From: a virus
Taxonomy: Duplodnaviria > Caudoviricetes
Strand: one strand, 5' to 3'
DNA length: 64,000 nucleotides
Virus record (IMG/VR): IMGVR_UViG_3300029705_000039
The notes below the pieces were generated by a model. The model searched no databases. It was not told the origin of the DNA and saw only the letters and a list, made by a program, of their open reading frames with translations. Shown piece after piece: positions 7,977-60,033 of this stretch (position 1 is the first letter of the stretch; the number at the start of each line of letters is the position of its first letter). The position numbers were made by a program, and so were the translations under genes.

Positions 7977-8684
7977 GTGGTGAAAATAATGAAAATCCGT
8001 CAAGCCCCTGTGGCTGATTTACTGAAATATATTGGAGAATTATATGCTAATCGCAACCATAATAAACAAAAGAGTATTTTTGATGTTATTAATAACTATT
8101 ATTGCTCTTTAAGTAAGCATAAGACTATTATGCCAGTTGCGGGCGACTATTTTAACGATTGGTGCGATTTAAATTGGAGTCCCACTATGAAGAATTGCCC
8201 TAATATTCCTGGTATTATTATTTATAAAGATAATCCAAATGGCACAAGAAAATATGGACTAATCTATCATAGTGGCTATATTATTTCCGAGCCACTTCAA
8301 ACTAATTATATGTCTTTTTATGAAATTGATAATAATGGTCGTGTATCTTCCCATGTTTATTGTAAGGATGATTGGGATGGTTGGGGCGCGCCTATAAGAT
8401 TTTTTAGCTTCCCGCCAGAAGATTATGTTGATAGTAGCACTTGGACTTTAGGTGAACGTGTATTATCAAAAGATGTATTTGGCCACGACGTAAGGCAATT
8501 ATAGGCTTTATTACATAGAGCGCACGAGGAAGTGCCATTACATGGCTACTTTGAAGACCAAACCCTAAAAGCACTACATTTAACGCAATATTGGTGTAAT
8601 ATTCCTCAAACCAATAGCTTCAACTTAAATAGTGTTGAAGGCAAAAAAATTATTGAGTATTTAACCAATGGTAATAAAGATTAA
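7977..8684 (+). CDS. peptidoglycan-binding domain protein (1 TAG=Gln)
   Basis: GHDVRQL*ALL matches PG_binding_1 G.DV..LQ.LL; open to TAA 8684. Confidence 0.7.
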
Positions 8685-10125
8685 ACTATCTAGAGAAGAG
8701 AATATCAATTATTATGGCTCTTCTGAAATTGAACTTGATATTGAGGAATATTTAAAAGGTGTAGTTCCAAGCGAAATTGGTAATGCTCATATTGAAGCGT
8801 GCGCGGCCTAGGCTGTATGCGCTCGCACCTATGCGGTAATTAAAATTAATTCCAAAGGCTATATTACTGATGAGTCCGCAAAAGATTAGGCATTTCGGAC
8901 TTCTCGTTTAACTGGCTATCCCAATGCTTATGAAGGAATTAAAAAGACAGCGGGAGAAATATTATATTATAATAATAAAATTGCTCACTGCTATTATAGT
9001 TCTTCTAATGGCGGCCGCACTACTTCTTCAAAGGAGCGTTGGGGCGGAGACTATCCTTATCTAATTAGTTAGGATGACCCCTATGATAGTGGTAGCGGTA
9101 ATGGCCATGGTGTGGGCATGAGCCAATTAGGAGCAAAGAATCGTGCGGCCGCGGGTCAAACTTATAATGAAATTTTAAGCTTCTATTTTCCCGGCACATA
9201 TGTGCGAGGAGATGAATCTAAAGTAATGACAATCGAACAATTTATTTTAAATTGGTGTAAAGAAAGAGTAGGAAATCCTTATATTTATGGTGCAACTCAA
9301 AAGAAATGTACCGTTTCTTATCGTAAGGAACGCATGGCACAATATCCAAGCTTTGCCGCGAATATTAAAAAATATTGTTATGTCTTAAGTGGCAAGGGCT
9401 CTGCCTGTTCCAACTGTAAATGGTATGACAAAGAGCGCAATACTCATAAATATGCTTATGACTGTGCTCAATTTATTCGTTGGGGCGCAAACGCCGCGGG
9501 CCTGCCACCTGTGAAAAGTGGCGCAACAAGTCAGTGGAAAAGTGATATTTGGCAAGAGAAAGGCGATTTTAAGGATATTCCTACTAATAAGTTATGTTGT
9601 GTTTTCCGTGACAAAAATGGTACAAAAGAACATGTTGGATGGTATTATAATGGCATTGCCTATCACGCCCAAGGACATTCCACTGGTGTGGTAGCGACTG
9701 ATAATAAATAGTACAAATCTTGGACACATTATGCCATTATGACAGGTATTTATACCTCTAATGGTGTTCCTATTGAACTTAGTAATAATATTTAGCCTGA
9801 AACTTAGGATGTGATTAAAGTGCTTTATCAAGCAAAAGTAAAATCTACCGATACAAAATTAAATATGCGCAAGGAGCCTAATAAGTCTTCCGAGCGTATT
9901 ATGTATATTCCACCTCAAGGTATGGTTGATGTTATTGAAGAAACTAATGCAGATTGGTGGAAAGTTATTTATGCTGGCGAGACTGGCTATGTAATGTAGG
10001 AATACTTAACTAAGGAGTTAAGTGATACTTCTAAGGACTATTATATTAAAATAAAATGCGGGAGTGAGGCAGATGCAAGGCTTATAGCAAAAGCGCTCCA
10101 AGGCGCAGCAGTCATAGAGGGGTAA
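8668..10125 (+). CDS. endolysin: SpoIID/LytB + NlpC/P60-like + SH3b (7 TAG=Gln)
   Basis: EEYLKGVVPSE, AA*AVCARTYA, GHGVGMSQLGA; YIYGA..YDCAQF..HVGWY; LNMRKEP..WWKV.Y.GETGYV; single frame, 485 aa. Confidence 0.85.
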
Positions 10126-11262: not shown

Positions 11263-11328
11263 AAATTTGACAAAAATAAAAAATCATTATATAATATATT
11301 TATAAGGTTGAGGAAAACTCAACCATAT

Positions 11329-11415
11329 GCCCGGATGGCGGAATTGGCGAGACGCGCTCGACTCAAAATCGAGTACATTGATACACTGTGGGTTCAAATC
11401 CCACTCTGGGTACCA
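11329..11415 (+). tRNA. tRNA-Leu(CAA)
   Basis: cloverleaf, loop CTCAAAA, ACCA. Confidence 0.9.
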
Positions 11416-11419
11416 TTTT

Positions 11420-11540
11420 TAGACGTTTACAGCAAATTTTGATAGTAATCAAAGTGTCGTTGGTTCGATCCCAACATTGCAAGCCAATAATTTTGCAGTT
11501 CGCCCAGTAGGTAGGGCATTTGACTAAAAAGAACGTCTAG
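11420..11540 (+). ncRNA. circularly permuted tRNA-like RNA inside CAGCAA stem module copy 2
   Basis: T arm and 3' acceptor+GCCA precede 5' acceptor and D arm; enclosed by TAGACGTT/AACGTCTA. Confidence 0.75.
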
Positions 11541-11556
11541 TTTTATATAATTAAAT

Positions 11557-11647
11557 TGGGGATTGGTGTAATGGCAGCACGGCGGACTCTAAATCCGTGA
11601 GCCCCCTGAAGGCGTAAGTCAGGGTTCAAATCCCTGGTCCCCAGCCA
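11557..11647 (+). tRNA. amber-decoding tRNA (CTA), Gln-like
   Basis: GCGGA-CTCTAAA-TCCGT; U1-A72, G73, CCA; extended variable region. Confidence 0.88.
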
Positions 11648-11654
11648 TTATATT

Positions 11655-11718
11655 TAGACACAACCAGCAAGTTATTTGTATTGCTAATAGAGAATTGATA
11701 CGACTAAATTGTGTCTAG
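11655..11718 (+). ncRNA. CAGCAA stem module copy 3
   Basis: TAGACACAA-C-CAGCAA ... TTGTGTCTA-G-TTT. Confidence 0.6.
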
Positions 11719-11775
11719 TTTAAGTAAAAATATAAGCGCCTATATGGCGCTTTCTTTGTATAAGGAGTGATTCCC

Positions 11776-12387
11776 ATGGCTGTTTAGGGTGAAAAAATTT
11801 CATATTCTGAATTATTAAATTGGTATGAAGTATTTAATAATCTTGCTACCAATTATAGTGAAAATGTTACCGCTTTATCAATTCCTGTTTCTGGTAAAAA
11901 GGCTGAGCCTTCAGATATTAATAACCTTCATGAAAAAATTAATCAATTTCGTTCTGATACTTATCTCGGCACAAAGGCAGAATGGTTCCCTATTGGAACT
12001 GATGTAAGTAAAAATGAATATATTCGCGCTATTGACCCTACTGCTATTCTTGGCGTAGTTTCTAATGCTACTTTAGTAAAATGTCGAAATGTAGCTACTA
12101 ATACTTGTGGCGTTCATGGCAGTGGTTCTTTAAGCCACGGCAGTAAAGGGAATGGTACGTGGGGCAATACACAAAAATCTTGTGGCACAAAGTCGCATGG
12201 AGACTGGCACAATGAAGGTAATACCGATGGATGGTATTCTAGTGGTAAGAAAACGAATGGATGGTGGAGCCATAGTACCCGCAGTTGCGGAGAGCATGGT
12301 TGCGGCACTAATAATCATGCCAGCAAAGGCAACACAACTGTAATTGATATTACCTGTGTCCATTCTACAAAAGTTAATCAAGCCTAA
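11776..12387 (+). CDS. putative radical-SAM substrate with pentapeptide G/H/W/C repeats (TAG=Gln at codon 4; absent from ORF track)
   Basis: AAGGAG RBS, 203-aa open frame ending TAA 8 nt before the first rSAM gene. Confidence 0.8.
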
Positions 12388-12395
12388 GGAGTATT

Positions 12396-13772
12396 ATGGA
12401 ACATCTTTATAAAAATCTTTCTACTGTAGTTTTTTATACTTGCGGCACCTGTAATCTTAAATGCCGTTATTGTGGTATTAATAAAAATCCAATATTAAAA
12501 GATATAGATAGTGCTCTTGCCAAAAGTTTTGAAGGAGATTATTACTTTCGACGAGTAAAAGATTATTTCCCCCGTAAAGATATGCTACTTAACTTTGAAA
12601 CTTGGGGCGGCGAACCTTTTCTCCATATGGAGCGTTTATATCCAGTTTTAAAAACTCTATTGGATTATTATCCTTACTTACAAAATGGTTATTCTTCTAC
12701 CAATTTTTCTTTTGAAAATTGGAATGAAAAATTTTTTGGTTTAATGGACTGTTTTGGACAATATCCAAATCGCTTATTTAAATATTGTCTACAGCTTTCA
12801 GTAGATGGCCCTGAATATATTAACGATGCTGGCCGCGGAACAGGTGTAACTAAAAAATGCTTGGCTAATTTTAATAAATTAGTAGCGCTTTTAGCGGCGG
12901 GCCGCCTACCTAAAAATGTAGACCTAACCATTACCCTAAAGGGAACTTTAGATAATGACACTATTAAACAACTTTGTCAAAAAGATAAGATTATAGAGTA
13001 TTTTCAATTTTATGAAAATAATTTTATAAATCCTATCAAACAACTAAATTTATCTAATGTTGATATCATTCCCACAATTCCTAATACTGCGGTCCCTTCT
13101 CCTGTTACTAAAGAAGATGGAAAAATCTTTGCTAAACTAGTTAAGCTTTGTCGCGAAATCGAAGAAGAGAATAAGACTTGTAATTATTTTAATTATTATA
13201 ATATAATTACACCTTATTATAGTAATATCTGCCAAAATTGTTTAACCTACAAATATGGTTGGCATACTTGCGGCACAGGAGATAGCGTTATCGGTTTATT
13301 ACCTGATAATATGGTTTCTACCTGCCATGAGGGTTTTACCCAAATTGTAGAAGAATATCAAAAATTAGCGGCACAAGATAAGAATCTTAATTCTACGATT
13401 ACTTTCGATAAATTTAGAGATGAACAAGCGATTAGTTTATGCGTCGATGACGAAGGATTTTATGAACATCACTATAAAATGTCTTTATATCAACACGATG
13501 ATGCCACAGCACGTGTCGCAACTAGTGCTAGTTTAATTGTAGCATTAGCTCTTGCCAAACAAATTGATGAATGCTATATTAATCAGACTAACGCTTTAAA
13601 GGCCGCGATTTTTATTCAAAGTCATACTTCTTATTGTATTAAAGACAACTACAATAAGACTGGTTCTTACACTCTACCGCCCGTAGGTTTATATAAATTA
13701 TTACTTAACGGTGCGATGGAATACATACAAGGAGAAGGAGAACTAAAAGTTAATGATGTTAGAAAAGACTAA
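12396..13772 (+). CDS. radical SAM protein 1 (SPASM/twitch-like)
   Basis: CNLKCRYC, WGGEP, SVDGP, CGTG...TCH. Confidence 0.9.
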   Translation: MEHLYKNLSTVVFYTCGTCNLKCRYCGINKNPILKDIDSALAKSFEGDYYFRRVKDYFPRKDMLLNFETWGGEPFLHMERLYPVLKTLLDYYPYLQNGYSSTNFSFENWNEKFFGLMDCFGQYPNRLFKYCLQLSVDGPEYINDAGRGTGVTKKCLANFNKLVALLAAGRLPKNVDLTITLKGTLDNDTIKQLCQKDKIIEYFQFYENNFINPIKQLNLSNVDIIPTIPNTAVPSPVTKEDGKIFAKLVKLCREIEEENKTCNYFNYYNIITPYYSNICQNCLTYKYGWHTCGTGDSVIGLLPDNMVSTCHEGFTQIVEEYQKLAAQDKNLNSTITFDKFRDEQAISLCVDDEGFYEHHYKMSLYQHDDATARVATSASLIVALALAKQIDECYINQTNALKAAIFIQSHTSYCIKDNYNKTGSYTLPPVGLYKLLLNGAMEYIQGEGELKVNDVRKD

Positions 13773-15165
13773 AAATATATTTCAAAAGGAGCAAGATGCT
13801 CTTTTACAAACTGTCTTGGGGCTAAGATTCTTAGACCCCTGGACAGATAAAGAATATGATGATTTCTCATTGGTAGCAGATGCTAACCTAGAAATCTTTA
13901 TTACTAGCGCTTGTAATCAAAAATGCGAATATTGCTATCTAATTAAACATAAAGATTTATATCCGCAAGAATTTCGAGATAAAAGTTTAATATTAGATAA
14001 TTTAAGAAAATTATATGATTGGATTTATGATAATAATTATCATATCCCTCTTTGTACTTTTTTCTCTGGTGAAATTTGGCATATCAATTTTGGTTTGGAA
14101 GTATTAGATATTACTTTAGAATATTTAAAGAAGGGAATTAATATCGATAGATTTATGATTCCTTCTAATTGTTCTTTTGTCTTAGATGAATCTCAACTAG
14201 AAAAAATTCAAACCTATATTGATCTATTTGATAAATATGGATATCCTCTACAATTTTCTATTTCAGTAGATGGCGCTATTTTAGAATCTGAAACGAGACC
14301 ATTAAATAATGGAATTGCCAAAACAGAAGATTATTATGATAGATTATTTCTATTTGCTAAACATAATAATTATTATTTTCATCCAATGGTCAGCGCCTTT
14401 AGCGTGGAAAAGTGGATAGAAAATTACAAATGGTGGGAAAAACAATTTAACAAATGGGATATGAATATTTCAGCCTTAATGATGTTAGAGGTTAGAAATG
14501 ATGATTGGACAGAAGAAAAAATCACCGCTTATACATCCTTTCTTAATTTTTTAATTGATAAATATTTTGAAGAAGAATGTGGAAAAAATGTAGAAGTGTT
14601 TTCTAATCGTCTAATGAATATTCGCAATTATATTCCACAAAAAATTCATCCTGCCGAATTAGCCGGTTATACTCCTTGGGCATTACCAGAAACTGACAGT
14701 TTTATTGGTTGTACCTGCGCTAATGAACTAACTGTACGGCTTGGCGATTTGGCAATTATACCTTGCCATAGATTGGGATATAATAAATATAAATATGGCA
14801 ACTTTACATTAAAAAATAATCATATTGACACAATTGAAGCAAATAATCCTCAAATGGCAGTTAAAATCTTAATGAGCAACTTTAATCTTGCTAGTTTTGG
14901 TTGCGATACTTGTTTATTTAATCATTATTGCCTTAAAGGGTGCTATGGTAGCCAATATGAAAATATGGGCGATCCATTTATTCCTGTTCCGAATATTTGT
15001 AACTTCTTTAAAAAGAAATATAGTTTTCTTTTACAAAAGTATAAGGATATGGGAGTATTTGATTATTACAAAACTATTGCACCGCAGGAATTAGAATATC
15101 CGCGTATTAAGAAATTATTAGACCTTTTTGAAGAGTGGGAGGTTTCGCCGCTATGCAATGGATAA
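13753..15165 (+). CDS. radical SAM/SPASM protein 2
   Basis: CNQKCEYC, SISVDG, GC...PCHR...CDTC...C..GC...C. Confidence 0.9.
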   Translation: MMLEKTKNIFQKEQDALLQTVLGLRFLDPWTDKEYDDFSLVADANLEIFITSACNQKCEYCYLIKHKDLYPQEFRDKSLILDNLRKLYDWIYDNNYHIPLCTFFSGEIWHINFGLEVLDITLEYLKKGINIDRFMIPSNCSFVLDESQLEKIQTYIDLFDKYGYPLQFSISVDGAILESETRPLNNGIAKTEDYYDRLFLFAKHNNYYFHPMVSAFSVEKWIENYKWWEKQFNKWDMNISALMMLEVRNDDWTEEKITAYTSFLNFLIDKYFEEECGKNVEVFSNRLMNIRNYIPQKIHPAELAGYTPWALPETDSFIGCTCANELTVRLGDLAIIPCHRLGYNKYKYGNFTLKNNHIDTIEANNPQMAVKILMSNFNLASFGCDTCLFNHYCLKGCYGSQYENMGDPFIPVPNICNFFKKKYSFLLQKYKDMGVFDYYKTIAPQELEYPRIKKLLDLFEEWEVSPLCNG

Positions 15166-15497
15166 ACGGTATGAAAATGTTCCCTTATGGGCGAACTCCA
15201 GTACAAAATATTACTCTAGAACAATTAGAGAATGATAATATAGAAGAAATTAATATGTATCTCTTGAAAATGGCGCGCCAAATGATTATTTATTAGGAAT
15301 TAGTTAGTTGGAAAGCTGATGGAACTCGCTCTAATAAGTATGCTTACAATATTTTCCCTGATGATTTGCCTGATAATGTATCTTGTTTAAGTGCTTATGG
15401 TCAAAAGATGGTTAATGATTGGTATTCTAGAAATAAATACCATGGCGATAAAGGAGTAAAGCAGACAGATGTTGGATTTAATTATACCGGTATATAA
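15153..15497 (+). CDS. hypothetical protein (1 TAG=Gln)
   Basis: GGAGG RBS; 114-aa frame filling the gap between rSAM2 and GT2. Confidence 0.6.
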
Positions 15498-16479
15498 TAA
15501 TTTGGAAGGGTTGTATAGAACTTTGTTATCTATTGGTGCGGAAACTAAGCAAAAAGTTTACGTGACTATTGTAGATGATGCCTCAGATATTAACTATGAT
15601 GAAGTGATTCCGCTATTCCAAAAACTTTTCCCTATTCGTATTCTAAAATTAAGTGAAAATATGGGTCCTGGTGTGGCAAGACAGCAAGGCATACGAGAGA
15701 CTAATAACCCATATTTTTCTTTTATTGATTGCGGCGATACATTTTATTCTCCTTTAATATTGCCTACGATGTTAGAAGCAATAGAAAAGCATCCTCAAGC
15801 AATGATGTTTTCTTGGGCTCATATAGAAGAGAATAGCGATGGAAGTTTGGATATGGTTAATTCTTATCATAATCGCATTCATGGTAAAATTTATAATAGG
15901 GAGTTTATAAATAAACATAATATTACTTTTTCTCAATTATCCCCGTATGCAAACGAAGACATCGGCTTTAATCTTGCGTGTCGTATGATATTAAAATCTT
16001 TATATCCTGAAACAGCATTGTATTCTAATGAAGATGCGGCAGTTGTATGGAAATGGAGCGGTCCTTCTATTGTTCGTGCGAATGACTGTGAATTCTATTA
16101 TAGAAAACAACATTTAGGATTGGCTTTGAACAGTTTACACGCGATTAATATAGCAAAAGAAAATAATGTATTAGAGCGTATAATTATAGAAGAAATATAT
16201 ACAACAATGATATATTTATATATGTTCTATTTACAAACTTTATATGTAAGGCCGCAATTTAAAGATGAGGCTTATATGGGTTGCAAATATTATTATTCAA
16301 AAATTTTTAGAGAATATGGGATAAAAAACCCATCTTTATTTAGAGATTATTACTATAAAGTGCTACTTTCTTTCCTCTCCGATGAAGATGACCCAATGCT
16401 ACAATCTCTTGTAAGTTTTGATGTTCTTAAATTCTTACAAGAATTGGAGGAAAATACGCATGAGGGACTTAAAAATTAA
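15469..16479 (+). CDS. glycosyltransferase family 2
   Basis: IIPVYN, VDDAS, GPGVARQ.G, FIDCGD, NED. Confidence 0.9.
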   Translation: MLDLIIPVYNNLEGLYRTLLSIGAETKQKVYVTIVDDASDINYDEVIPLFQKLFPIRILKLSENMGPGVARQQGIRETNNPYFSFIDCGDTFYSPLILPTMLEAIEKHPQAMMFSWAHIEENSDGSLDMVNSYHNRIHGKIYNREFINKHNITFSQLSPYANEDIGFNLACRMILKSLYPETALYSNEDAAVVWKWSGPSIVRANDCEFYYRKQHLGLALNSLHAINIAKENNVLERIIIEEIYTTMIYLYMFYLQTLYVRPQFKDEAYMGCKYYYSKIFREYGIKNPSLFRDYYYKVLLSFLSDEDDPMLQSLVSFDVLKFLQELEENTHEGLKN

Positions 16480-18263: not shown

Positions 18264-18379
18264 TAGGCACATACAGCAAAACAGTAGTCCAATTGGGCCG
18301 GTAGCTCAGATGGTAAGAGCATTAGATTGATAATCTGAAGGTCGTTGGTTCGAGTCCAACCTGTTAAATATGTGTCTAG
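18264..18379 (+). ncRNA. CAGCAA module copy 5 enclosing a tRNA-Ile(GAT)-like body
   Basis: TAGGCACATA-CAGCAA ... TATGTGTCTAG; D, anticodon and T arms inside; no CCA. Confidence 0.7.
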
Positions 18380-18520
18380 CAAAACATAACACTTGAGGTT
18401 ATGTTGAGTAATGAAATAATTCCCCGTCCCAAGCCGCGGTGAATTATGGAACTCTAAGGGGGTTTTAGTGTAGAACCACAACTTGGGTAGGCTTAAATGC
18501 CGAAGGAAAAACACTTTTAT

Positions 18521-18639
18521 GGAAACGTGGTGTAACGGTAGCACTTAAACAAGTCGGTATAGGCCGCGGACCGGTCAGCAATCTTTCTTTAGACGATTCT
18601 GCAAAAATTGAGGAGTTGGTTCGAATCCAACCGTTTCCA
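18521..18639 (+). ncRNA. tRNA-like RNA (GCA loop) with CAGCAA insertion between D and anticodon arms
   Basis: GGAAACG/CGTTTCC acceptor, D and T arms, CGATT-CTGCAAA-AATTG; about 48-nt insert. Confidence 0.7.
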
Positions 18640-18658
18640 AATTAGCGGCATTCATTGT

Positions 18659-23135: not shown

Positions 23136-23291
23136 AGCCGAGTAGCCAAGTGGAAAGGCACGGGACTTCGTAAAGTAGTGTAATTGGTAGCAATGTTTCC
23201 GGTTAGCGCGCAGGGGACGGTGTTGGTTCGAATCCAACCTTTACGGCCATGACTCCCGCATTCGCTGGTTCGAGCCCAGCCTCGGCTGCCA
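23136..23291 (+). tRNA. tRNA-Gln(TTG) split in its anticodon by a nested tRNA-like RNA
   Basis: CGGGA-CTT|insert|TGAC-TCCCG; acceptor AGCCGAG/CTCGGCT, GCCA. Confidence 0.85.
23169..23249 (+). ncRNA. nested tRNA-like RNA (81 nt) ending in GCCA
   Basis: CGTAAAG/CTTTACG acceptor, D loop TGGTA, T arm GTTGG-TTCGAAT-CCAAC, 12-nt non-canonical anticodon loop. Confidence 0.85.
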
Positions 23292-24331: not shown

Positions 24332-24421
24332 TGCTAGTATAAATATTAAAAATATGTTGTTTGGTAAAATTTTAGCGGATAGAGGAATCTATCCGCTTAT
24401 TTTTATAGGTAGGTGAAAAAG

Positions 24422-26284
24422 ATGGTTCCATATTCATAGAATATTTATGGGTATCCCTATAGTGTTATTTTAAAAGGCAGCGACATTCAAGCCCAATCAG
24501 GTCAACTTTTAAATAATTCTGAATCTGGGATACTAGAAAATTATAATATAAGTAGATTTCAAAGAATAATTGATGGCGTGATTTCTAAGCTATAGCGAAT
24601 TATTAATAATTAGCGAAATATTTATGAAGAAATTTAGGGAATGAAAAATGGCAAGGGAGCATAGCTACTTAATGATATTTTACATAATAGAAATATTACT
24701 GTAGATGAAAATGGCAATATTAAAGGAATTGCACAAACTTATGAAGAAATGTTTACTGAAGATATAAAAAAGAGAAAAGCGACATTAAAAGAGATGAATG
24801 ATTATAAAGTTCAATATAATCAAGTTATAGAATATATAAATACAGCCTTAAAAAAAGTCAATGTAAACAACTTAAATCCATCTACTTTATAGGACGTTAT
24901 TTCTAAAATAAAAATTAACAATGATAAACAAAGAGGTATCCAAAAATAGATGCTAACCTTATTTGAAGATGAAAATAATGCGAATAGTTTTAGTAAATTA
25001 TTCATGAAATCCGGAACATTATCTAATGATAATCTACGCAAACAATATGCTACATTAATTAAAGATTATAATAACGTTCGTGAGGATTATAAGCGTATTG
25101 CAAAGGATGAGTTGCCGCAAAAAATAGGAAAAGACCTAAATACAAATTTGCAAAAGTTATCTAAAGATTTAGCAGAAGTCTATGACGTAGAATCTGATGA
25201 ATTACGAGAAGCCCTAATAGATTATTTACAGGCGAATATTGATTCATCAGCTGAATTATCAAGTCCCTAGAATTTTACTTTTACAGTTCCAAGAAAAGCA
25301 AAAGGTTTCGAGGCCGTTGAATATACAGCCTCCTTAAGTGTTCCTATTTTAACGCATAATGATTTAGAAAATATTGTTATTTCTGCTATACAAACTGGTG
25401 CTGTTACTGACCGTGTATCTTCGCAAATAAGATGCGAGGTTAAATTTAAAGATCAAGAAGCTTTAACTCGAATTTCAAGAGAAAGATATGATCAAATAAT
25501 TCAAGGTACTTTAAAATTAGAGAAAGAAATTGATTATTTGGCCCTTGATACAGTAACTACTCATGTATCTAATAAAATAGACGATATTATTACTATAATG
25601 AATGAAGACCCTAAAAATGGAAATAAAAAATATAATTTAAAATTTTCAGACAAATTAATCTTTAATGAAACGTATAATGGAGCGGGCGGTCTAGCTAATG
25701 TTAAAATGGAAGGCGGCACTTTATATTCATTAATTAATTTATTACAGGGCGATAATTTAGGTAAGTTAGGCAAAAACCCAAATAATGACAATTTTGAAGA
25801 ATTAATTTTTACCATCCTCAATATGTCTTCTGTATCTAAATTAGCAGGAGATTTAAATAAAATTGAAGTTGATAATTTTATTAAAGCTTTATTAATTTCT
25901 GAAATCTATACTTTAGCATTTAATCCAGAAAGTTTTATTGTAGATTTAGAAACATTAGATGAACGTAATTTATATTTCCATCATATAGATACAATGATTC
26001 TACCTTCTTATAACTTATTACAAAAAACAATAAATTAGTTAGAAGAAATTAAAGAAACCTTACTGACTTCAGAAGGAGCGTAGAATAATTATATAAAAGC
26101 ATCAATTACTCCTAGCACTTCTTATACGGCCTCGTAGTTATATACTCAATATGTTAAGACTCCTAATTTTTAGAACGATCCAGCAGGACAATGGAAAATT
26201 GTGGCAGATTTAATTGCTTCCGACACCGCTATTTCTGTAATGTTGGATATACCAGCTATTTTAGGTTCAGTCGCGGGAAAATAA
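24422..26284 (+). CDS. 620-aa hypothetical protein (12 TAG=Gln), possibly virion-associated
   Basis: single frame with only TAG interruptions, joining ORFs 24950-25270 and 25538-26038. Confidence 0.75.
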
Positions 26285-26340: not shown

Positions 26341-26973
26341 ATGACAAACAAAACCCTTCCCTTAGGTTATGTCGGTGGCGATATTATGACCCACGGCAGT
26401 CAACTTGCCCGCCAGGAAGAATGTGATAAGATGGATGCGGCGGGGCTAAAGGTTCAGTATTATAGTCCCGCACAAAATAAGTCTATCAACGATAAATCCA
26501 ATATGACTGAAGAACAGAATAACTGCCTTGCTGAAAAAATTACGGCGGCAGATATTGAGCGTCTTTGGAATAGCGACTTCGCAGTAATGTGTACCGAACA
26601 GTCCGCCATTGGTACGATGTGCGAATTAGGTTGCTTATATGGTTGGAAGTATATGGCAGATAGGCTAATGGAAGTATTGAGTAAAGTTGGCTCGCTAGAG
26701 GATTTTGAAAAATCACAGTTAATTCGCTCTGAGGGATGTATTGCTTTATTCAACGAAATCTATCGTATTGCCAATAAAAATATCTTCGCCCATTACTTTG
26801 ATATTCGTACTAACCATCTAAATGAAAAGGACTGGCGTCGTAGTTTTAGCATCAATCAGCTTCTATATGGTATGATTTTAGATTGCACCACAGACCACAA
26901 ACTTCACGAAAACTTTGATAGTGTCCTTGAAGAACTAAAGAAACTCTATAAGGAGGGCACTACTAATGAGTAA
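26341..26973 (+). CDS. nucleoside 2-deoxyribosyltransferase-like protein
   Basis: YVGG, YSPAQN, D...L..SD, GT.CELG; AAGGAG RBS. Confidence 0.75.
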   Translation: MTNKTLPLGYVGGDIMTHGSQLARQEECDKMDAAGLKVQYYSPAQNKSINDKSNMTEEQNNCLAEKITAADIERLWNSDFAVMCTEQSAIGTMCELGCLYGWKYMADRLMEVLSKVGSLEDFEKSQLIRSEGCIALFNEIYRIANKNIFAHYFDIRTNHLNEKDWRRSFSINQLLYGMILDCTTDHKLHENFDSVLEELKKLYKEGTTNE

Positions 26974-28258
26974 TCTAATTTATCCCATCAACCAAAAACC
27001 CGCAACCGCTCGTGAATGGATTATGTATACAATTCAATTCACCTTCGCAGTTCTAACTGCTACGGTTCTAATTTCCACTATCTGCGGCACTAATATTGCC
27101 GCAGGTATGGTGGCCGCGGGTATTTCTACTTTAGTTTTCCTATGTATTACTAAGTTTAGAGCCCCTATTGTTATTTCCAATTCAGGTGCTACCGTAAGTG
27201 CGGTTTTGGGTGCAATTGCTTTATCTAACGCAGTAGAAACCAACCTACTTGGCGTTGTGCTTGGCGGCCTAACCATTATGATTATTTATAGCGTTGCCGC
27301 GTTCTTGATTAAAAAGTTTGGAATTGCTTGGCTTACAAAGTTAATTCCCCCTGTTATTAGCGGCACAACTATTATCGTAATTGGCGCTACTCTTGCTGGT
27401 TTTATTCCTACTTATGCACAGGTTGCTGGTTCTTATTCTCTTGTCGGTTGTGCTGCCGCAATTTTTACAATGTTGGTAATTGTTCTTTGTATGCACTATG
27501 GTAAAGGTATGGTTAAGACACTACCTTTCCTAATTGGCCTACTTGCCGGCTATGGTTTATCACTAATTTTAACAATTACCGGTGTTGCTCCTCTTGTTAA
27601 TATCGCGGCCCTGGACTTCAATCGTATTATTGCTATGCCAGATTTTGCTTTCCTACATCTAAATTTTGCCGCGTTTGATTGGAGCACTTTGCCGCAAATT
27701 ATTATGCTGTTCGGTCTTGTAAGCCTTGCCGCTATGACGGAACATATTGGCGATATGATGACTGCCTCCGCCGCATCAGAGCGGAAATTACTCGAAGACC
27801 CAGGTTTGCATCGCACTCTACTTGGTGATGGCGTTGGCTCTTTTATTGGCACTTTAATTGGCGCTCAACCTAATACAACTTATTCTGAATATACTTCCAC
27901 GATTGTTGTAAGTAAAGTTGCCAGTGTTTATGTTACTTTTACTACCGCCTGTGCTCTTATTTTACTTGGTATCTTCGGTCCTTTTAATCAGTTTATTACC
28001 AGTTTGCCTAACTGCGTTTTCGCAGGAGTATCTATGGTGGCCTATGGTATGATTGCTATGGCGGGATTAAGAACGATTATTGATAATAAAATTGACTTCT
28101 CTAATAATAAAAACGTCGCTATTTTCGCAACTATGTTGGCTTGTGGCGTAAGTGGTTTTGGTATTACATATGGTTCATTTAATTTAAGCGGCATTGCACT
28201 TGCTATGGTTGTAGGTATTATTCTAAATCTAATCTTAAAAGATTCTAAGAAGGCGTAA
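26966..28258 (+). CDS. uracil/xanthine permease (NCS2, UraA/PyrP family)
   Basis: PPVISG, EHIGD, DPGLHRTLLGDG, PNTTYSE. Confidence 0.92.
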   Translation: MSNLIYPINQKPATAREWIMYTIQFTFAVLTATVLISTICGTNIAAGMVAAGISTLVFLCITKFRAPIVISNSGATVSAVLGAIALSNAVETNLLGVVLGGLTIMIIYSVAAFLIKKFGIAWLTKLIPPVISGTTIIVIGATLAGFIPTYAQVAGSYSLVGCAAAIFTMLVIVLCMHYGKGMVKTLPFLIGLLAGYGLSLILTITGVAPLVNIAALDFNRIIAMPDFAFLHLNFAAFDWSTLPQIIMLFGLVSLAAMTEHIGDMMTASAASERKLLEDPGLHRTLLGDGVGSFIGTLIGAQPNTTYSEYTSTIVVSKVASVYVTFTTACALILLGIFGPFNQFITSLPNCVFAGVSMVAYGMIAMAGLRTIIDNKIDFSNNKNVAIFATMLACGVSGFGITYGSFNLSGIALAMVVGIILNLILKDSKKA

Positions 28259-28918: not shown

Positions 28919-28975
28919 AAAATTTTACCAAACTCACTTACCTAAAATAACCTAAATGGTGAGGAGGTGAGTAAA

Positions 28976-29425
28976 ATGGGCGACAAAGTTATGAAATTTT
29001 TAAAATTCATTAAAGATTTTTTCACCGGCCTCTTTAACTTGGCTTCTTTTTCACAATGGAAAGAATAGGTTGATACCACTTTTACAAGCGTAGCAACGCA
29101 AATGTCTAAAATCTCAAAAGACTTAAAAAAGAATACAACCGCTATGACGACTCTTTCCGGTTAGATTACTACTCTTGGAGAAGAAATTACTAAGATTAAA
29201 GATGGTCTTTAGATTGAACTTTTCGGAAGCCTACAAACACTACACGCACGTTTGGTAGAACAAAAGTTTGCTACTATTGAATAGAAATTAGAAGCCAAAC
29301 TTTATTATGACCAAATCCATAATCTTGGAAAAGATGGATGGAGTCAAAAATATTATGATGAAATTATCGCTATGTCCGAAAGCCGCGCTGAATATTGGGA
29401 ATGGGTAAAGTAGGGTAAGATTTAA
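28976..29425 (+). CDS. hypothetical coiled-coil protein (5 TAG=Gln; absent from ORF track)
   Basis: GGAGG RBS, 149-aa frame; YDQIHNLGKDG resembles a motif of lysis-module proteins. Confidence 0.7.
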
Positions 29426-30950: not shown

Positions 30951-31739
30951 ATGGGATTAATTTATATGCTAACCAGCCCCAGTGGAAGATCTTATATTGG
31001 ATAGACAAAGCGACCCTTTACTATACGATGGAATCAGCATAAAAGAGAGGCGGAAACTGGAAATGATACTCCTCTTTATAAAGCCATACGAAAATATGGC
31101 GCCGATTCTTTTTAGCATACAATATTAATAGAAACAGATAATGACAAATTAAATGAGTTAGAATAGTATTATATTAAATAGTATAATACGTATAATAATG
31201 GTTATAATTGCACTATCGGTGGCGAAGGAAATTGCAAAATTTCTGATGAGACTATTATTCAACTTTGGGAGAGTGGGTTGTGCTCAGCAGATATAGCACG
31301 GCAATTAAATGTATAGGGACATACTATTGAAAATAGAATTAAAAGTCTTTATTCTGATGCTGAAATATAGGAACGTCGATACGCTTCAATTGGGAAAAAA
31401 CTTCAATTAAAAGATAATAATATAAAAACTCTATGGGATTAGGGCTATAGTGTTACTTAGATTTCGGATATATTATCCTATGATAGACATACAGTAAGCC
31501 GTGTTTTATAGAGACTGGGAATTACTCCTGAACAGTTAGAATATTCTAGAAAGGCCCACAGCGGTGATAAGAAAAATTCTCCCATAATACAATATGATAA
31601 AAATGGTAATTTTATATAGGAATGGTTTTCAATTAGTGAAGCGGCGAGACAATTAAATATTCACGCTGGTAATATTTGCAAAGTTCTAAAAAAAGAAAGA
31701 AAAACTACTGGTGGTTATATATTTAAATATAAGGAGTAA
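30951..31739 (+). CDS. GIY-YIG homing endonuclease with HTH and NUMOD1 (10 TAG=Gln; absent from ORF track)
   Basis: MGLIYMLTSPSGRSYIG*T; GYNCT.GGEG; SISEAAR...GGYIFKY. Confidence 0.85.
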
Positions 31740-36012: not shown

Positions 36013-36297
36013 ATGCCGAAAACTGTTTATGTATGTGAATATTGTCATACCGCTTATCCCAATCGTATGGATGCTCGTTGGTGCGAAATTCTCCACGAGC
36101 ATAAGACAGGTCTTGGTTTATATAATGAGCGAGTCATGGCAGAGATAAAGCGTCTTAATCAAAATCCTTGCGATTATTGCCGACGCGCATATTATGTATA
36201 TGGCTCTGAATGGAATTGTGATTGTCAAAAGAATTGTCATAATTTCTCTTTATTCATTGCCAAGGAGAATGAAAATGGTGACTCATTAGTTAATTGA
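36013..36297 (+). CDS. Cys-rich hypothetical protein
   Basis: CEYC..C..H, CDYC; sigmaA promoter. Confidence 0.65.
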   Translation: MPKTVYVCEYCHTAYPNRMDARWCEILHEHKTGLGLYNERVMAEIKRLNQNPCDYCRRAYYVYGSEWNCDCQKNCHNFSLFIAKENENGDSLVN

Positions 36298-36568
36298 CAA
36301 AAATGTATTCTCGCATATGGTAAACGAATTACCGCAAGTAGAATTTAATGGATAGATACTAATTCCTTTAAAACGAATTAATCAAATATTGTCTTTCCTA
36401 CCAATAGAAGTTCGTGGGAGAACTACTATGTAGAAAAATAGTTATAATACAATTCGATGCACCTATTGTGGAGAATTTTTACCTAATAGCGAAATGGAAG
36501 TAGCACATTTTAAATACTGCCCGTATTGCGGATTAGATATTGAAGAATTAAAATTTGACAATTATTAA
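36275..36568 (+). CDS. zinc-ribbon protein (3 TAG=Gln)
   Basis: CTYCG...YCPYCG in read-through frame; AAGGAG RBS. Confidence 0.65.
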
Positions 36569-38933: not shown

Positions 38934-39401
38934 TTGGCTAATTATTGGTATATAGATATTAATAGTAATAATTTAACCGCAGAAGTAGCCAGCGAAATTT
39001 TAAAATATACTGGTGAAAATCATTTTATTCGTAGTTTTAGTTATCAGCACGGTGATTGTGTAAATAGAAAAGTTGGCGGAAAACTTTATATGAATACTCG
39101 CGGCCTGCCCAATATCATCGATATTCTTAAAAAATATGATATTGCAGAGAGTGAAATAAAGTGTGAAGATGAGTTTGAGAGCGCTTGGACTGCGATTTTC
39201 GAACAGTATTTCGCCGACTTGCCCGTTACCAGGGAGTATCATTCTATTCTCGAAAAGAATATAAATGAAAAGATAATTGAGTTAGATTGGGATGGAAAAA
39301 ATTGGGACAAACTTGAAGATTACTTTAAAACTTGTTGGGGAAGTAGAAGTTTTCAATTCGAGCCTGAAAATTGGACGATTATTGGAATTAAAGAAGAATA
39401 A
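38934..39401 (+). CDS. hypothetical protein
   Basis: AGGAGG RBS, TTG start. Confidence 0.6.
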   Translation: MANYWYIDINSNNLTAEVASEILKYTGENHFIRSFSYQHGDCVNRKVGGKLYMNTRGLPNIIDILKKYDIAESEIKCEDEFESAWTAIFEQYFADLPVTREYHSILEKNINEKIIELDWDGKNWDKLEDYFKTCWGSRSFQFEPENWTIIGIKEE

Positions 39402-39429
39402 TATTGTTATTATAACAATGGAGGATTCT

Positions 39430-40065
39430 ATGAAACAAGGCGAAAGATATGGCGCTTTGACTCTAAGATACAAGGAAGGTAATTATTGGGTTTGTTCTTG
39501 TGATTGTGGAAATTAGAACGTAATAGCCGAAGCAAAAAATTTATTAAATCATTGTTATCCTTGCTGTGGCAAATGTAGGCGTTTAGGCACTTGGGCAATA
39601 AAAGAGGCAGGATTGCGTAAATAGAAAGCATTAAATATTGAGCATCAAGAAGTCGTGAAGAAAAATAAAAAACATTATTATTCTGAGACTTCCCGGGGCT
39701 ATATTAAGAGTTCTAAGAAAGAAACTATAATTTATAAAAAATTAACTCAACTAGGAAAAATATTTGAAACTGAAAAAGAGTTTGGTGTTTGCTACCCAGG
39801 AAGTTATACTCCTTTTAGATTTGATTTCTGTGTCGCTTCTTCTGAAAGTCCAGTTGGATTTTATTTAATTGAATATGACGGATAGCAACATCAAAAACCA
39901 ATTAAAATATTTGGTGGAGAAGCGCAATTTAAAAAGCAGCAATGGCGAGATCAGTATAAAAACCAATGGTGTAAAAATAATAACATTCCTTTAATTCGAA
40001 TTACGGGGAACGTTATTTCCGATGCTGATTTAGAACTTAAAACTACAGAATTCCGTGCGGTTTAA
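39430..40065 (+). CDS. free-standing endonuclease, Zn finger + Vsr/DUF559-like domain (3 TAG=Gln)
   Basis: W.CSCDCGN; RFDF...LIEYDG*QH...D..KN.WC..NNIPLIRI. Confidence 0.8.
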
Positions 40066-55260: not shown

Positions 55261-56508
55261 ATGGAATATGTAATCAAACGTGATGGTTCTCAGGTCTTAT
55301 ATAATAAAGATAAAATTTATGAAGCTATTAATGCCGCGAATGAAGAATGTATTCTTAAAGAAGAAGGGTATTTAACATTAGAATCTCTCTATGATGCCTT
55401 AGAGGATATTGATAGTCGTTGCAACGACCATGTGTCTGATATTGGTGTAGAAGAAATTCAGAACATTGTTGAACGTGTATTAATGTCCTATGAACCTGAT
55501 GTTGCTCGTGCTTATATTCGCTATCGTTATATGAAAGAAGTCGCTCGTGAATATAAGGCAGACTTTTTTGAAGCGATTGGCGATAAACTCGCGGCTAAGA
55601 ATGTAGTCAACCAAAATGCCAACGTAGACGAGCATTCCTTCGGCGGCCGCGTAGGCGAAGCATCTGATGCTATGATGAAAGAGTATGCACTTAACTTCTG
55701 CATGTCCAAGATGGCGCGCGAAAATCATTTAAATAATGAAATTTATATTCATGACCTAAGTGCTTATGCAGTTGGGATGCACAATTGCCTTACTGTTCCT
55801 TTTGACCATCTACTTGAAAAAGGCTTCAATACTCGTCAAGTTGATATTCGTCCCGCTAATAGTGTAGATACTGCTTTCCAGTTAGTTGCTGTTATTTTCC
55901 AACTACAATCTCTAATGCAGTTTGGCGGCGTAAGTGCTTCTCATATTGACTGGACTATGGTACCTTATGTAAGAAAGAGTTTTAGAAAACATTGGAACAA
56001 TGGATTAAAATATTTAGCATTTTGGGAAGTAAAAGATGAAGACTATGAAACTGAAAATAAGCCCTTGGATGAATATCCCAATTTTGATGATTATCAAGAT
56101 ATTTATCGGTATGCTATGGAAATGACTGAAAAAGAACTATCCCAAGCCGCAGAAGGCTTATATCATAACCTCAATTCTCTCCAAAGCCGCAGCGGAAACC
56201 AGTTGCCCTTTACCTCCCTTAACTATGGAACTTGCACTCTTCCTGAAGGTCGCATGGTAATTAAGGCTCTACTTGAAGGCTCCATTAAAGGCGTAGGCAA
56301 GCATCATCGCACTCCTATCTTCCCTTGCGGTATTTTCCAAGTCGGCGAAGGAATCAACAAGCATCCTGGCGACCCTAATTATGATTTATTCCAGCTGGCA
56401 CTAAAATCAACTTCTTTACGTCTATATCCCAATTATGCTAATATTGATTGGTCTGGTAATGCAGGATATGATAAAAACGACCCAAAAACTTATTTCTCTA
56501 CCATGGGT
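55261..56508 (+). CDS. nrdD: anaerobic ribonucleoside-triphosphate reductase, exon 1
   Basis: ATP cone VIKRDG, IYIHDL, HNC, QLPFTS; ends ...STMG. Confidence 0.92.
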
Positions 56509-57334
56509 AAGTGCAAACTACAGCTCATGTAAAATCTTTTGAACCTCGCCCGAGGGTGTCTGCGTAAGCAGGCTAACGGTTAGGTCCCACGAGGATGAGA
56601 CCGTGCGAAGATTCGTTATAATATTCATCTCTGTGAGGTGAATATATGGAAGTTTATAAGATTACTAACCTAATAAATGATAAAGTTTATATTGGTTAGA
56701 CAATTCGACCTATTTAGTAGCGTTTTCATCGGCATATAAGCGATGCTATGAATAATATACTTGATACACATTTTGCAAGAGCAATAAGAAAATACGGTCC
56801 AGATAATTGGAAAATAGAAAGTATAGACATCGCTAAAACATAGGAAGAATTAAATCAAAAAGAACAGTATTGGATTAATTATTATAATTCTGTTATAGAT
56901 GGATATAATGAAACAAATGCCATTAGCAAGTGCGGTGGAAATACTTATCAATCTAAAACAGAAGAAGAAATGAAAATTATTAAGGAAAAGATACGAAAAA
57001 CTAAACTTGGTGGTAAAAATCCCATGGCACGAAAAATAAAAAGAACAAATATACAAACTGGAGAAACCGATATTTTTGAAACAGTTATATCTTGTGCCAA
57101 AGCTTGCGGGATACAAAATGGAAAAACATCAATTACCACCCGGCTAAATAAACAAATAACTTCTCCTTATAAAAATACTTGGACTTTTGAATATTATAAC
57201 GAATAACGTGTATCGACTATCCCTGATGAATGTAAGGGAGTAGGACAGGAGATAGGCACCTGTCCGAAGCGGAAGACTATCTTGACAAAGATAGAAGATA
57301 TAGTCAGTGCTGATGGCAACATCAGATAAACATG
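56509..57334 (+). mobile_element. group I intron in nrdD
   Basis: exon ends in U, intron ends in G; splicing restores TMG|CRT; P7-type CGACTA / GATATAGTC. Confidence 0.9.
56646..57206 (+). CDS. intron-encoded GIY-YIG homing endonuclease (4 TAG=Gln)
   Basis: MEVYKITNLINDKVYIG*T...GYN; NUMOD-like tail. Confidence 0.85.
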
Positions 57335-58339
57335 TGTAGAACGGCGAACGGCTGGGATGTAAATGGTTTGGGTCAGCAAAAGGACGGCCGCGGTAATATT
57401 TGTCCTGTAACGATTATTATGCCTACGCTTGCAATGATGGCTTTGGGTGGTGGAGGAGGTCCTTGTGAGGAATTGACACTAGAACACCCAGTAATAGAAG
57501 AGCGTATTAAGAAATTTATGACTCTTCTTGATAAGAAAATCCACGAAGCCAAAGATATGCTAATTGAGCGCTTTGAATATATTTGCCGCCAAAGTCCTGA
57601 CTCAGCCAAGTTTATGTATGAAAATAATACTATGGCAGGCTATGTGCCAGAAGAAGGTATTCGCTCTGCCTTAAAGCATGGAACAGTTGTAATTGGACAA
57701 CTTGGTTTAGCAGAAACCTTAGAAATTTTAATCGGTAAGAATCACACTACTCCCGAAGGTATGGAACTTGCAAAGCGTATTGAGCAGTTATTTAAAGATA
57801 GATGTGCTGAATTTAAGCAACAGTATAAATTGAACTTTGGTGTATATTATACGCCTGCTGAAAACCTCTGCTATACTGCTATGAAGAAGTTCCAAGATAA
57901 ATATGGAACTATTCCTCATGTAAGCGACCATGAATACTTCACTAATAGTATCCACGTTCCTGTTTGGGAAAAGGTTAATGTTCTTGAAAAAATCGATATT
58001 GAAAGCGAACTAACTGGTTATAGTTCCGCAGGCTGCATTACTTATGTTGAACTTGAAAGCGGCATTAAAAATAACCTATCCGCCTTGGAACAAATTGTTA
58101 TCTATGCTATGGATAAAGATATTCCTTATCTTGCTATCAATGTCCCCAATGATACTTGCCTTGATTGCGGCTATACTGATGAATTTAACGACAAGTGTCC
58201 TGAGTGCGGCAGTACCAATATTCAGCAGCTTCGCCGCGTAACAGGCTACTTAACAGGCGACTATAAAACCGCCTTCAATAAAGGTAAACAATATGAAACT
58301 GAAGACCGAGTAAAACATACCGGAAGGATGGAACAGTAA
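57335..58339 (+). CDS. nrdD: anaerobic ribonucleoside-triphosphate reductase, exon 2
   Basis: CRT, TPAENL, YFTNS, CLDC/CPEC, RRVTGYL glycyl loop. Confidence 0.92.
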   Translation, partial: CRTANGWDVNGLGQQKDGRGNICPVTIIMPTLAMMALGGGGGPCEELTLEHPVIEERIKKFMTLLDKKIHEAKDMLIERFEYICRQSPDSAKFMYENNTMAGYVPEEGIRSALKHGTVVIGQLGLAETLEILIGKNHTTPEGMELAKRIEQLFKDRCAEFKQQYKLNFGVYYTPAENLCYTAMKKFQDKYGTIPHVSDHEYFTNSIHVPVWEKVNVLEKIDIESELTGYSSAGCITYVELESGIKNNLSALEQIVIYAMDKDIPYLAINVPNDTCLDCGYTDEFNDKCPECGSTNIQQLRRVTGYLTGDYKTAFNKGKQYETEDRVKHTGRMEQ

Positions 58340-59031: not shown

Positions 59032-60033
59032 ATGGATATCTTTATTATTATATGTCTAATTGGTTTATCTCTTTACCTTGCTTATAAATATACTCAATTA
59101 CAAAAGTAGCAATCTAGTTATAAGGAACTATAGACGGATATTTAGAACGCGAATAGTATCTTAGACGATATTAAAGCATAGACTAAAACCGCCACAGAAG
59201 AGCTACAAGATATATAGCAATCTTAGACTAGTCATCAGTTTGAATTGGTTGCTCTACTTGCTAAAGAAGACGAATTACGCAAAAATATTGATAGTAATTA
59301 GGCAATCGTAGCAAGCCAAACCGAAATTATTAATAACTATCGAGAGCAATACAGTGCCCTAAAAGATGAGTAGGATAAAAAATGTCTACAAATCATTTAG
59401 GATACTTCCTTAAAAATTAATTAGATTGAAGCAAGTTATAAATTAACTATTGAATAGAAGGAACAAGAAACCAAAGCGATTATTGAATAGTTAGCTGCCA
59501 ATCTTGAGGAAGAGCGGCAAAAATATCTTTCTATTATCGAAACTGTCTAGAATGCTTAGACAGAAGATGAAAAAGATGCCAATAGGCATATTAAAATTCG
59601 TGATGCCACAAAAGATGATATTAATTATCTTTTAAATAATGTTGCCAATAAACTATCTAATCCTGATATTTTATATAAGCTTATTTGGTCTGAATATATT
59701 CAAAAACCTACTAATGAGATGTTAGACTTTATTTTACCACAACGTGATTGCCCGGGTATTTATAAAATCACTAACGATAAAAATAAAAAAGCGTATATCG
59801 GTCGTTCCACTTCTGTCCGTAAACGTCTAACCGACCACATCAAAAGCGCGGTTGGCATAAGCACCATCGCGGATTAGCGAGTTCATCAAGCAATGCGGGA
59901 AGAAGGCTTATGGAATTTTACTTTTGAACTGATAGAAGAATGCGATAAAGACAAGCTTAATGAGCGAGAAAAATTTTATATCCAATTCTTCTCAACCGAA
60001 CAACTTGGATATAATCAGAAAGCAGGAGGCTAA
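59032..60033 (+). CDS. membrane-anchored coiled-coil GIY-YIG nuclease (15 TAG=Gln; absent from ORF track)
   Basis: N-terminal TM, long coiled coil, GIYKITN...YIGRS...R...H...E..GYN. Confidence 0.85.

Follow-up and report, generated by a model that had tools for sequence, protein, structure and literature searches.

Results

An amber suppressor tRNA gene in a short transcription unit

The window, that is, the whole stretch of 64,000 nucleotides of phage DNA that was analysed, represents a part of the genome of a large phage. It contains 24 tRNA genes according to ARAGORN and a module for replication and nucleotide metabolism with genes for gyrase B and A, DnaB, RecJ, Pol III alpha, ligase, PhoH and a split NrdD; no near relative of the phage was found in INPHARED. 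At 11557-11647, on the plus strand, lies the gene for an amber suppressor, a tRNA(CUA) of 91 nt with an encoded CCA end, which was recovered by ARAGORN, by the Rfam tRNA model and by the covariance model R1 that is described below.

The suppressor belongs to a unit in which a promoter, tRNA-Leu(CAA), a structured spacer, the suppressor, a second spacer and a terminator follow one another. The promoter that heads this tRNA-Leu/tRNA-Sup unit (TTGACA-17-TATAAT; 11267-11295, plus strand) is of the sigma-70/sigmaA type and agrees with the consensus at 12 of 12 positions, in line with the initial annotation, which had placed the suppressor downstream of a sigmaA promoter. The first gene of the unit, tRNA-Leu(CAA) (11329-11415, plus strand), was found by both ARAGORN and the Rfam model, and the unit ends with an intrinsic terminator consisting of a 7-bp G+C-rich stem and a T run (11734-11752, plus strand). 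The first gene 3' of the terminator (11776-12387, plus strand; ribosome-binding site AAGGAG at 11762-11767, ATG at 11776) has TAG as its fourth codon (11785-11787), and one homolog has CAA at this position. The stretch directly downstream of the suppressor, at 12396-16479, contains two radical-SAM-like genes and a gene for a family 2 glycosyltransferase.

Two CAGCAA modules had been described as flanking the suppressor, and TAGAC-N5-CAGCAA is indeed found at 11420 and 11655; a copy with one mismatch starts at 18264. With up to one mismatch the motif has five matches in the window compared with 0.87 expected, and none of 100 shuffles reached five. The three copies are structured RNAs that begin with UAGRC-N5-CAGCAA and end with GYCUAG (11420-11540, 11655-11716 and 18264-18380), are closed by stems of 10-11 bp and have fold z-scores of -3.8, -1.2 and -3.1. 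They enclose parts of tRNAs (a T arm and a D arm, to which one copy adds an Ile-like anticodon arm); one of them has a weak Rfam YrlA match (22 bits), and 28 further copies of the module occur in the tRNA arrays of related phages. The modules are separate small structured RNAs and no part of the suppressor. No Ro60-like gene was present among the 30 window ORFs that were scanned against Pfam. At a permissive threshold, Rfam gave no ribozyme or intron family next to the suppressor, and the theta ribozyme is absent there. Neither this result nor the simple series of promoter, tRNA-Leu, tRNA-Sup and terminator supports the earlier idea that processing of this tRNA may time the switch of the code.

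Fold and identity elements of the suppressor

ARAGORN placed the anticodon CTA at position 33 of the tRNA (11589-11591). The cloverleaf scored 50.6 bits with the Rfam tRNA model (RF00005; span 11557-11644), well above the gathering score of 29 and in agreement with ARAGORN, and its variable region forms an 18-nt insertion relative to this model. The R1 score of 92.7 bits is not independent, because the suppressor is one of the seed sequences of that model. In single-sequence folding the energy of the suppressor was no better than that of shuffles (z = -0.5); this fold is uninformative, and therefore the reality and the function of the gene rest on the covariance model and on the comparative data.

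The acceptor stem (UGGGGAU/GUCCCCA) contains the pairs U1-A72, G2-C71, G3-C70 and U7-G66 and is followed by the discriminator G73 (11644) and the CCA (11645-11647). In the D arm, with the stem GUGU/GCAC and a normal GG in the loop, G10 and C25 (G at 11566, C at 11580) are paired. The decoding anticodon arm, on which sequence, ARAGORN and the Rfam model agree, occupies 11582-11598 (plus strand; stem GCGGA/UCCGU, loop CUCUAAA), and the T arm is CAGGG-UUCAAAU-CCCUG. Between these two arms lies a variable region of 21 nt (GAGCCCCCUGAAGGCGUAAGU, 11599-11619), in which the fold and the alignment of 29 relatives define a second hairpin (11601-11613, plus strand), referred to as the extra arm or pseudo-anticodon arm, with the stem GCC/GGC and the 7-nt loop CCCUGAA (11604-11610), which contains CUG at 11606-11608. 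The 6-nt linker GUAAGU (11614-11619, plus strand) from the extra hairpin to the T stem is as long as an ordinary variable loop, and its length is nearly constant in the relatives. All elements that the initial annotation had listed, that is, the CUA anticodon, the first three acceptor pairs, G73 and a variable region of about 21 nt, are thus present.

Judged from its canonical place after the D arm, its 5-bp stem, U33 and A37, the CUA hairpin is most probably the decoding arm. Its loop equals that of phage tRNA-Trp (CUCCAAA) with the change C35U, and the 5' acceptor strand UGGGGAU is identical in tRNA-Gln(UUG) genes of related phages. Compared with phage tRNA-Trp, tRNA-Gln and other isotypes, the body shows an identity of 0.6-0.78 in every case, which leaves descent from tRNA-Trp or from tRNA-Gln undecided.

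Of the identity set of GlnRS, as defined for E. coli, the suppressor has the weak pair U1-A72, G2-C71, G3-C70, G73, G10-C25 and U35 (11590). It does not have G36: the decoding anticodon contains A36 (11591), and an equivalent of G36 is found only in the loop of the extra arm (11608). A variable region of 21 nt departs from the 4-5 nt of a class I tRNA-Gln, and it has the length and, with its 3-bp stem, the stem-loop form of the long arm of the class II tRNAs for Ser, Leu and Tyr. The isotype features of that class, G1-C72 for Ser, A73 for Leu and Tyr, and the decoded residue, are absent, as the suppressor has U1-A72 and G73 and TAG corresponds to Gln (see below). The extra arm is of class II length without being an arm of the Ser/Leu/Tyr type.

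ARAGORN labelled the gene as tRNA-Pyl because of the anticodon alone. Typical tRNA-Pyl have a very short variable loop, an elongated anticodon stem and a small D loop, and pyl genes are located nearby; the label was rejected in view of the 21-nt variable region, the 5-bp anticodon stem and the normal GG D loop. As tRNA finders label such genes 'Pyl', 'Sup' or 'undetermined', the arm is missed in annotation.

In-frame TAG codons and the encoded residue

When TAG is read as a sense codon, the gaps in the gene map of the window close. Nine genes contain a total of 70 in-frame TAGs, corresponding to 2.6% of their codons; no TAG occurs within the 12,168 codons of the 40 other genes, all of which end with TAA (32) or TGA (8), never with TAG. 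Clear family matches were obtained for six of the nine: four free-standing homing endonuclease genes, three of the GIY-YIG type and one HNH-like (30951-31739, 39277-40065, 56646-57206 and 59032-60033), the gene for a SpoIID/SH3 lysin (8668-10125) and the gene for a RuvC-like resolvase (61758-62498, plus strand), which has 10 in-frame TAGs. The remaining three (24413-26284, 28967-29425 and 36194-36568) have weak matches or none, and no clear function.

In-frame TAGs cluster in the free-standing homing endonuclease genes, with up to 15 TAGs in 333 codons, and in the genes for the lysin and the RuvC resolvase; the neighbouring replication genes have zero in-frame TAGs. The TAG-rich GIY-YIG gene at 56646-57206 interrupts the anaerobic NrdD, which is encoded by two ORFs (55261-56532 and 57332-58339), and an HNH-like endonuclease gene is located between gyrB and gyrA.

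The assignment of TAG to Gln is based on the RuvC-like gene. An alignment query retrieved 74 related phage loci from IMG/VR, which were aligned with the window gene at the codon level of the DNA; a scan of IMG/VR with a single protein had given no matches. Three TAG positions have solely CAA, CAG or TAG in the 74 homologs, i.e., position 143 (CAA 31, TAG 25, CAG 18), position 160 (CAA 56, TAG 16, CAG 2) and position 204 (CAA 53, TAG 16, CAG 5), and 16 homologs are entirely devoid of TAG. Since TAGs of the window fall on invariant CAA/CAG positions, UAG is, on these codon counts, read as glutamine in this phage, which agrees with the Gln identity that had been proposed for the amber tRNA. With a phage tRNA(CUA) and in-frame TAGs at Gln positions of the homologs, the phage has the features of a code-15 suppressor system.

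For all TAG genes taken together, the sense codons aligned to TAGs were Q 404, K 198, E 113, R 109, S 51, L 36, Y 26 and W 4. The homologs often have K, E or R besides Q at these sites, as if the TAGs had been seeded at tolerant sites. Two further comparisons were not used to identify the residue. The protein-level RuvC homologs have Q at every TAG position, but their genes had been called with TAG=Q, so that this evidence is circular and was replaced by the codon counts in the DNA. The amino-acid composition of TAG-rich versus TAG-free genes does not identify the residue either: it is only CAG, and not Q, that is depleted.

The extra arm in related phages

IMG/VR was scanned for tRNA(CUA) with a query consisting of the anticodon arm and the T loop only, and thus the scan was blind to the content of the extra arm. 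It yielded 49 distinct long-armed tRNA(CUA), and 29 distinct sequences were aligned with the covariance model R1. The tRNA(CUA) genes of the relatives are 85-98 nt long. Their acceptor stems vary (UGGGGAU, AGCCCCG, UGCCCCG, AGGGGAG and others), and positions 1 and 72 are mismatched in 17 of the 29 and form U-A or A-U in 11. In the extra stem, all three pairs change on both sides (C-G, G-C, U-A and A-U), and 93.8% of the cells are paired. The seven columns of the extra loop read Y-U-[C/U]-U-G-A-N, in which the equivalents of U35 and G36 never vary and are preceded by either C or U.

The loops of the related phages' own tRNA-Gln are CUUUGAC and CUCUGAC, and the extra loop is a conserved mimic of the tRNA-Gln anticodon loop, with either CUG or UUG. 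The loop of the window, CCCUGAA, has C in place of U33, and its hairpin has only 3 bp. The suppressor shows the features of this unnamed R1 type, i.e., a covarying second hairpin, a loop of the N-U-Y-U-G-A-N type, a linker of 5-6 nt and a weak or mismatched 1-72 pair. An alternative pairing of the arm, with a GAA triloop, was rejected (75.9% versus 93.8% paired cells, mostly one-sided changes); in many relatives it can nevertheless bury part of YUG, which counts against the reading by GlnRS that is favoured below.

Among the 38 long-armed tRNA(CUA) with U or A as their first base, 29 contain YYUGA. In the comparison set from loci in common, which comprises Ser/Leu/Tyr arms as well as long-armed tRNA(CUA) that start with G or C, it was found in 3 of 96 (Fisher p ~3e-18, in statistics that ignore shared ancestry). 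U-G is invariant and position 34 is C or U only, although stems and acceptors have diverged and covary, which argues that the loop sequence is selected. These data show selection on the extra arm for the sequence of a Gln anticodon loop, presented on a covarying stem. This fits the idea of the initial annotation that the arm may be an identity tag, but a phage synthetase as the reader of the tag found no support (see below).

Other phages have Gln-type tRNA(CUA) of normal length. In phAss-1 (OQ749652.1), a long-armed tRNA(CUA) at 62445-62532 adjoins a normal Gln-type one of 72 nt, and both are annotated as tRNA-Sup-CTA; the existence of such genes means that the arm is not indispensable. The two phAss-1 genes (L311 2914-3079, equal to OQ749652.1 62445-62610) follow a tRNA-Leu gene and offer a natural pair for the contribution of the arm.

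In addition, IMG/VR contains long-armed tRNA(CUA) with Ser-type acceptors (GGAGAGA-like, G73) and ordinary Ser arms, at the loci L143, L142, L157 and L179, which are candidates for a reading of TAG as serine. In the Ser-type genes with GGAGAG acceptors the arm contains no anticodon mimic. SerRS does not read the anticodon, and the mimic-free arms fit this property.

A parallel in tRNA(UCA)

When tRNA(UCA) with a long variable region were sought in a similar scan, 10 distinct genes were obtained. In eight of them, from other phages, the loop of the extra hairpin contains UCCAA(A), the anticodon loop of tRNA-Trp, and at least three of these eight have a clear Trp-type acceptor with A1-U72 and G73; the other two of the 10 resemble tRNA-Sec. 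The mimic design recurs independently, as a Trp loop on tRNA(UCA).

Charging enzyme and host

Five complete relatives that carry a like tRNA have no match to PF00749, the core of GlnRS and GluRS, and none to PF00472, the class I release factors, so that the genome search proposed at the outset for such enzymes gave a negative answer in these phages. No synthetase was detected among the large ORFs of the window, and the authors of the phAss-1 study likewise found none (PMC10607447). Taken together, these results imply that a host enzyme charges the suppressor, and they lend no support to the proposal that the extra arm serves as an identity tag for a synthetase of the phage.

How host enzymes are brought to charge phage suppressors has been called an open question in the survey of Borges et al. 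(10.1101/2021.08.26.457843). E. coli GlnRS accepts phage tRNA(CUA) as substrates (10.1101/2025.10.30.685624). A xanthine/uracil permease gene in the window (26966-28258; 195 bits) has its nearest cellular homologs, with 32-35% identity, in Oscillospiraceae, which is a weak hint of a host from this family. A full glnS was found in three of the five Oscillospiraceae MAGs that hold these homologs.

Discussion

Phage suppressor tRNAs and TAG-to-Gln recoding are already well described. Code-15 phages that read TAG as Gln and have a suppressor tRNA(CUA) include crAss-like phages, Lak, Garnet/Amethyst/Topaz and phAss-1 (10.1101/2021.08.26.457843; PMC9523058; PMC10607447). The phage of the window shares with them a phage CUA tRNA, in-frame TAGs at Gln positions of some genes, among which are lysis genes and a homing endonuclease gene, and the lack of a phage synthetase. 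The code-15 papers treat these tRNAs as ordinary tRNA-Sup and do not mention an extra arm with a Gln anticodon loop; the word 'variable' does not occur in PMC10607447 and occurs once, in an unrelated context, in Borges et al. Neither full-text literature searches nor the key papers turned up an account of the arm or of any pseudo-anticodon of natural origin.

The reading that we favour, with a probability of slightly above one half, is that the tRNA is a functional UAG-to-Gln suppressor, the extra arm of which re-supplies the G36 identity to the host GlnRS. GlnRS recognizes the acceptor stem (weak 1-72, G2-C71, G3-C70), G73, the 10-25 pair, U35 and G36 (PMC9976931). The change of the anticodon to CUA would destroy the G36 determinant, and the extra arm would offer an intact YUG loop to the anticodon-binding domain of the host enzyme. 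Because the hairpin is set off from the anticodon stem by 2 nt and from the T stem by 6 nt, it could lie alongside the decoding arm, or an alternative conformer could put it at the position of the anticodon arm. The suppressor would be co-transcribed with tRNA-Leu(CAA) from the consensus host-type promoter, the host GlnRS would charge it efficiently and specifically, and the ribosome would read UAG via the CUA arm, which would permit translation of the TAG genes, that is, those for the homing endonucleases, the lysin, the RuvC resolvase and others. We infer that the extra loop is read by the host GlnRS, which is the best-supported mechanism. Several points count against it, among them the 3-bp stem of the window's hairpin and its C in place of U33. 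GlnRS is a monomer and approaches the tRNA from the face away from the variable region, so that the arm would have to be folded down beside the anticodon arm or a conformer switch would be required. Furthermore, a host that lacks GlnRS would have to rely on a non-discriminating GluRS as the reader, and an enzyme of that kind gives less reason to expect an invariant G36.

Several other explanations have to be weighed against recognition of the extra loop by GlnRS. It is possible, albeit unlikely, that the hairpin is what remains of a tandemly duplicated anticodon arm, or is neutral or stabilizing, and that for Gln charging the acceptor stem, G10 and U35 suffice, as they do in supE and su+7. A linker of 5-6 nt, as long as an ordinary variable loop, is what a duplicated anticodon arm would leave behind, and the normal-length Gln-type tRNA(CUA) show that some phages can dispense with the arm. 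In addition, amber tRNA-Trp accepts Gln, and a long-armed amber tRNA-Ser became Gln-accepting by changes in the acceptor, so that both are charged without a mimic; as the latter case shows, a long arm does not prevent charging by GlnRS (PMC9976931). A relic, however, would not be expected to keep an invariant U-G and only C or U at position 34 in 29 sequences with diverged, covarying stems and diverged acceptors, nor would its CCA version be expected to recur in tRNA(UCA). We consider it improbable that the YUG loop is read by a factor other than GlnRS, which might be a non-discriminating GluRS acting with GatCAB, an enzyme that modifies the loop, or a phage or host factor (e.g., with the arm as a decoy for an anticodon nuclease), or that it is a signal for processing or timing. 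In its favour, U1-A72 is also a mark of the indirect pathway via GluRS2 and GatCAB (PMC9976931), and the suppressor is located among Y-RNA-like CAGCAA modules that display parts of tRNAs. Yet the invariant G36 suits GlnRS better than a GluRS, for which tRNA-Glu (UUC) must be a substrate as well, the parallel for Trp suggests synthetases that recognize anticodons, and Rfam detected no processing element.

The remaining alternatives carry little weight. Some recoded phages (Jade) encode a TrpRS beside the suppressor (Borges preprint), and the 64 kb are the only visible part of this phage; nevertheless, given that PF00749 is absent from five complete relatives with this tRNA type, that the large ORFs of the window contain no synthetase and that none was found for phAss-1, a tag for a phage-encoded synthetase is very improbable. 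It is hardly more than conceivable that the tRNA is a two-headed decoder, the conformers of which read UAG with the CUA arm and CAG/CAA with the YUG arm. Both hairpins do have 7-nt loops that resemble anticodon loops, and ARAGORN found no sense tRNA-Gln in the window, but the second stem has only 2-5 bp (3 bp here), whereas a decoding arm requires 5 bp, and the relatives have separate tRNA-Gln genes. A class II identity, in which the long arm would mark a suppressor inserting Ser, Leu or Tyr, is contradicted by the codon data and scarcely tenable, because the TAG sites align with Gln; the length of the arm is that of class II, G73 and G2-C71 occur also in tRNA-Ser, and the IMG/VR scan revealed Ser-type tRNA(CUA) in other phages, but the first pair is U1-A72 instead of G1-C72, and the arm does not resemble those of tRNA-Ser, -Leu and -Tyr in the same phages.

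The E. coli amber suppressors supE (tRNA-Gln CUA) and su+7 (tRNA-Trp CUA, which receives Gln) are recognized and charged by GlnRS via U35, a weak 1-72 pair, G2-C71, G3-C70 and G73 (PMC9976931), all of which the suppressor described here has as well. Those two are single-base anticodon mutants of short-armed tRNAs and, in contrast to the present suppressor, have no second anticodon-like hairpin. As in the class II tRNAs (Ser, Leu, bacterial Tyr, Sec), its anticodon arm and T arm are separated by a long stem-loop; it differs in the 3-bp stem, the anticodon-like loop of 7 nt, the 6-nt 3' linker and the Gln identity, and the Ser/Leu/Tyr arms of the same phages mostly lack the YUG motif, as seen in the above-mentioned set, which includes G/C-starting tRNA(CUA) and has the motif in 3 of 96. 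[quoted passage not shown] That system is man-made, uses a HisRS fused to an extra anticodon-binding domain and has a modest effect (PMC7590224), whereas the arm of the phage tRNAs is natural and conserved and would have to function with a host enzyme that is unmodified.

The more general proposition, to which we give even odds, is that stop-reassigning phages use a natural pseudo-anticodon arm, with YUG on tRNA(CUA) and CCA on tRNA(UCA), that is read by the unmodified GlnRS or TrpRS of the host. If true, this would be a new tRNA architecture, with two naturally evolved anticodon-like arms, and a new kind of identity element, and it would account for the reassignments of phages being TAG-to-Gln and TGA-to-Trp. 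An arm that re-supplies a lost identity element of the anticodon would be a concrete, testable answer to the charging question of Borges et al., and, if confirmed, it would give genetic-code engineers a ready-made means to keep suppressors good substrates of anticodon-reading synthetases.

Other tRNA-like and structured RNAs

The window contains further tRNA-like and structured RNAs. A full-length match to drum RNA (RF02958; 75.8 bits versus 43) lies within the tRNA array at 18406-18519. At 18537-18650 there is a tRNA-like body, not called by ARAGORN, with the acceptor stem GGAAACG/CGUUUCC, a D arm and a T arm, in which an insert of about 70 nt with UCAGCAA and UAGAC replaces the anticodon arm. 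For 23169-23249, ARAGORN predicts a tRNA with a four-base anticodon (agcg), and the Rfam tRNA model gives 36 bits. In related phages, matches of 115-189 nt span the whole tRNA model and represent tRNA genes with large insertions, either introns or modules; examples are G005:C1:100955-101143, G004:C1:177722-177884 and G003:C1:117463-117582, among others.
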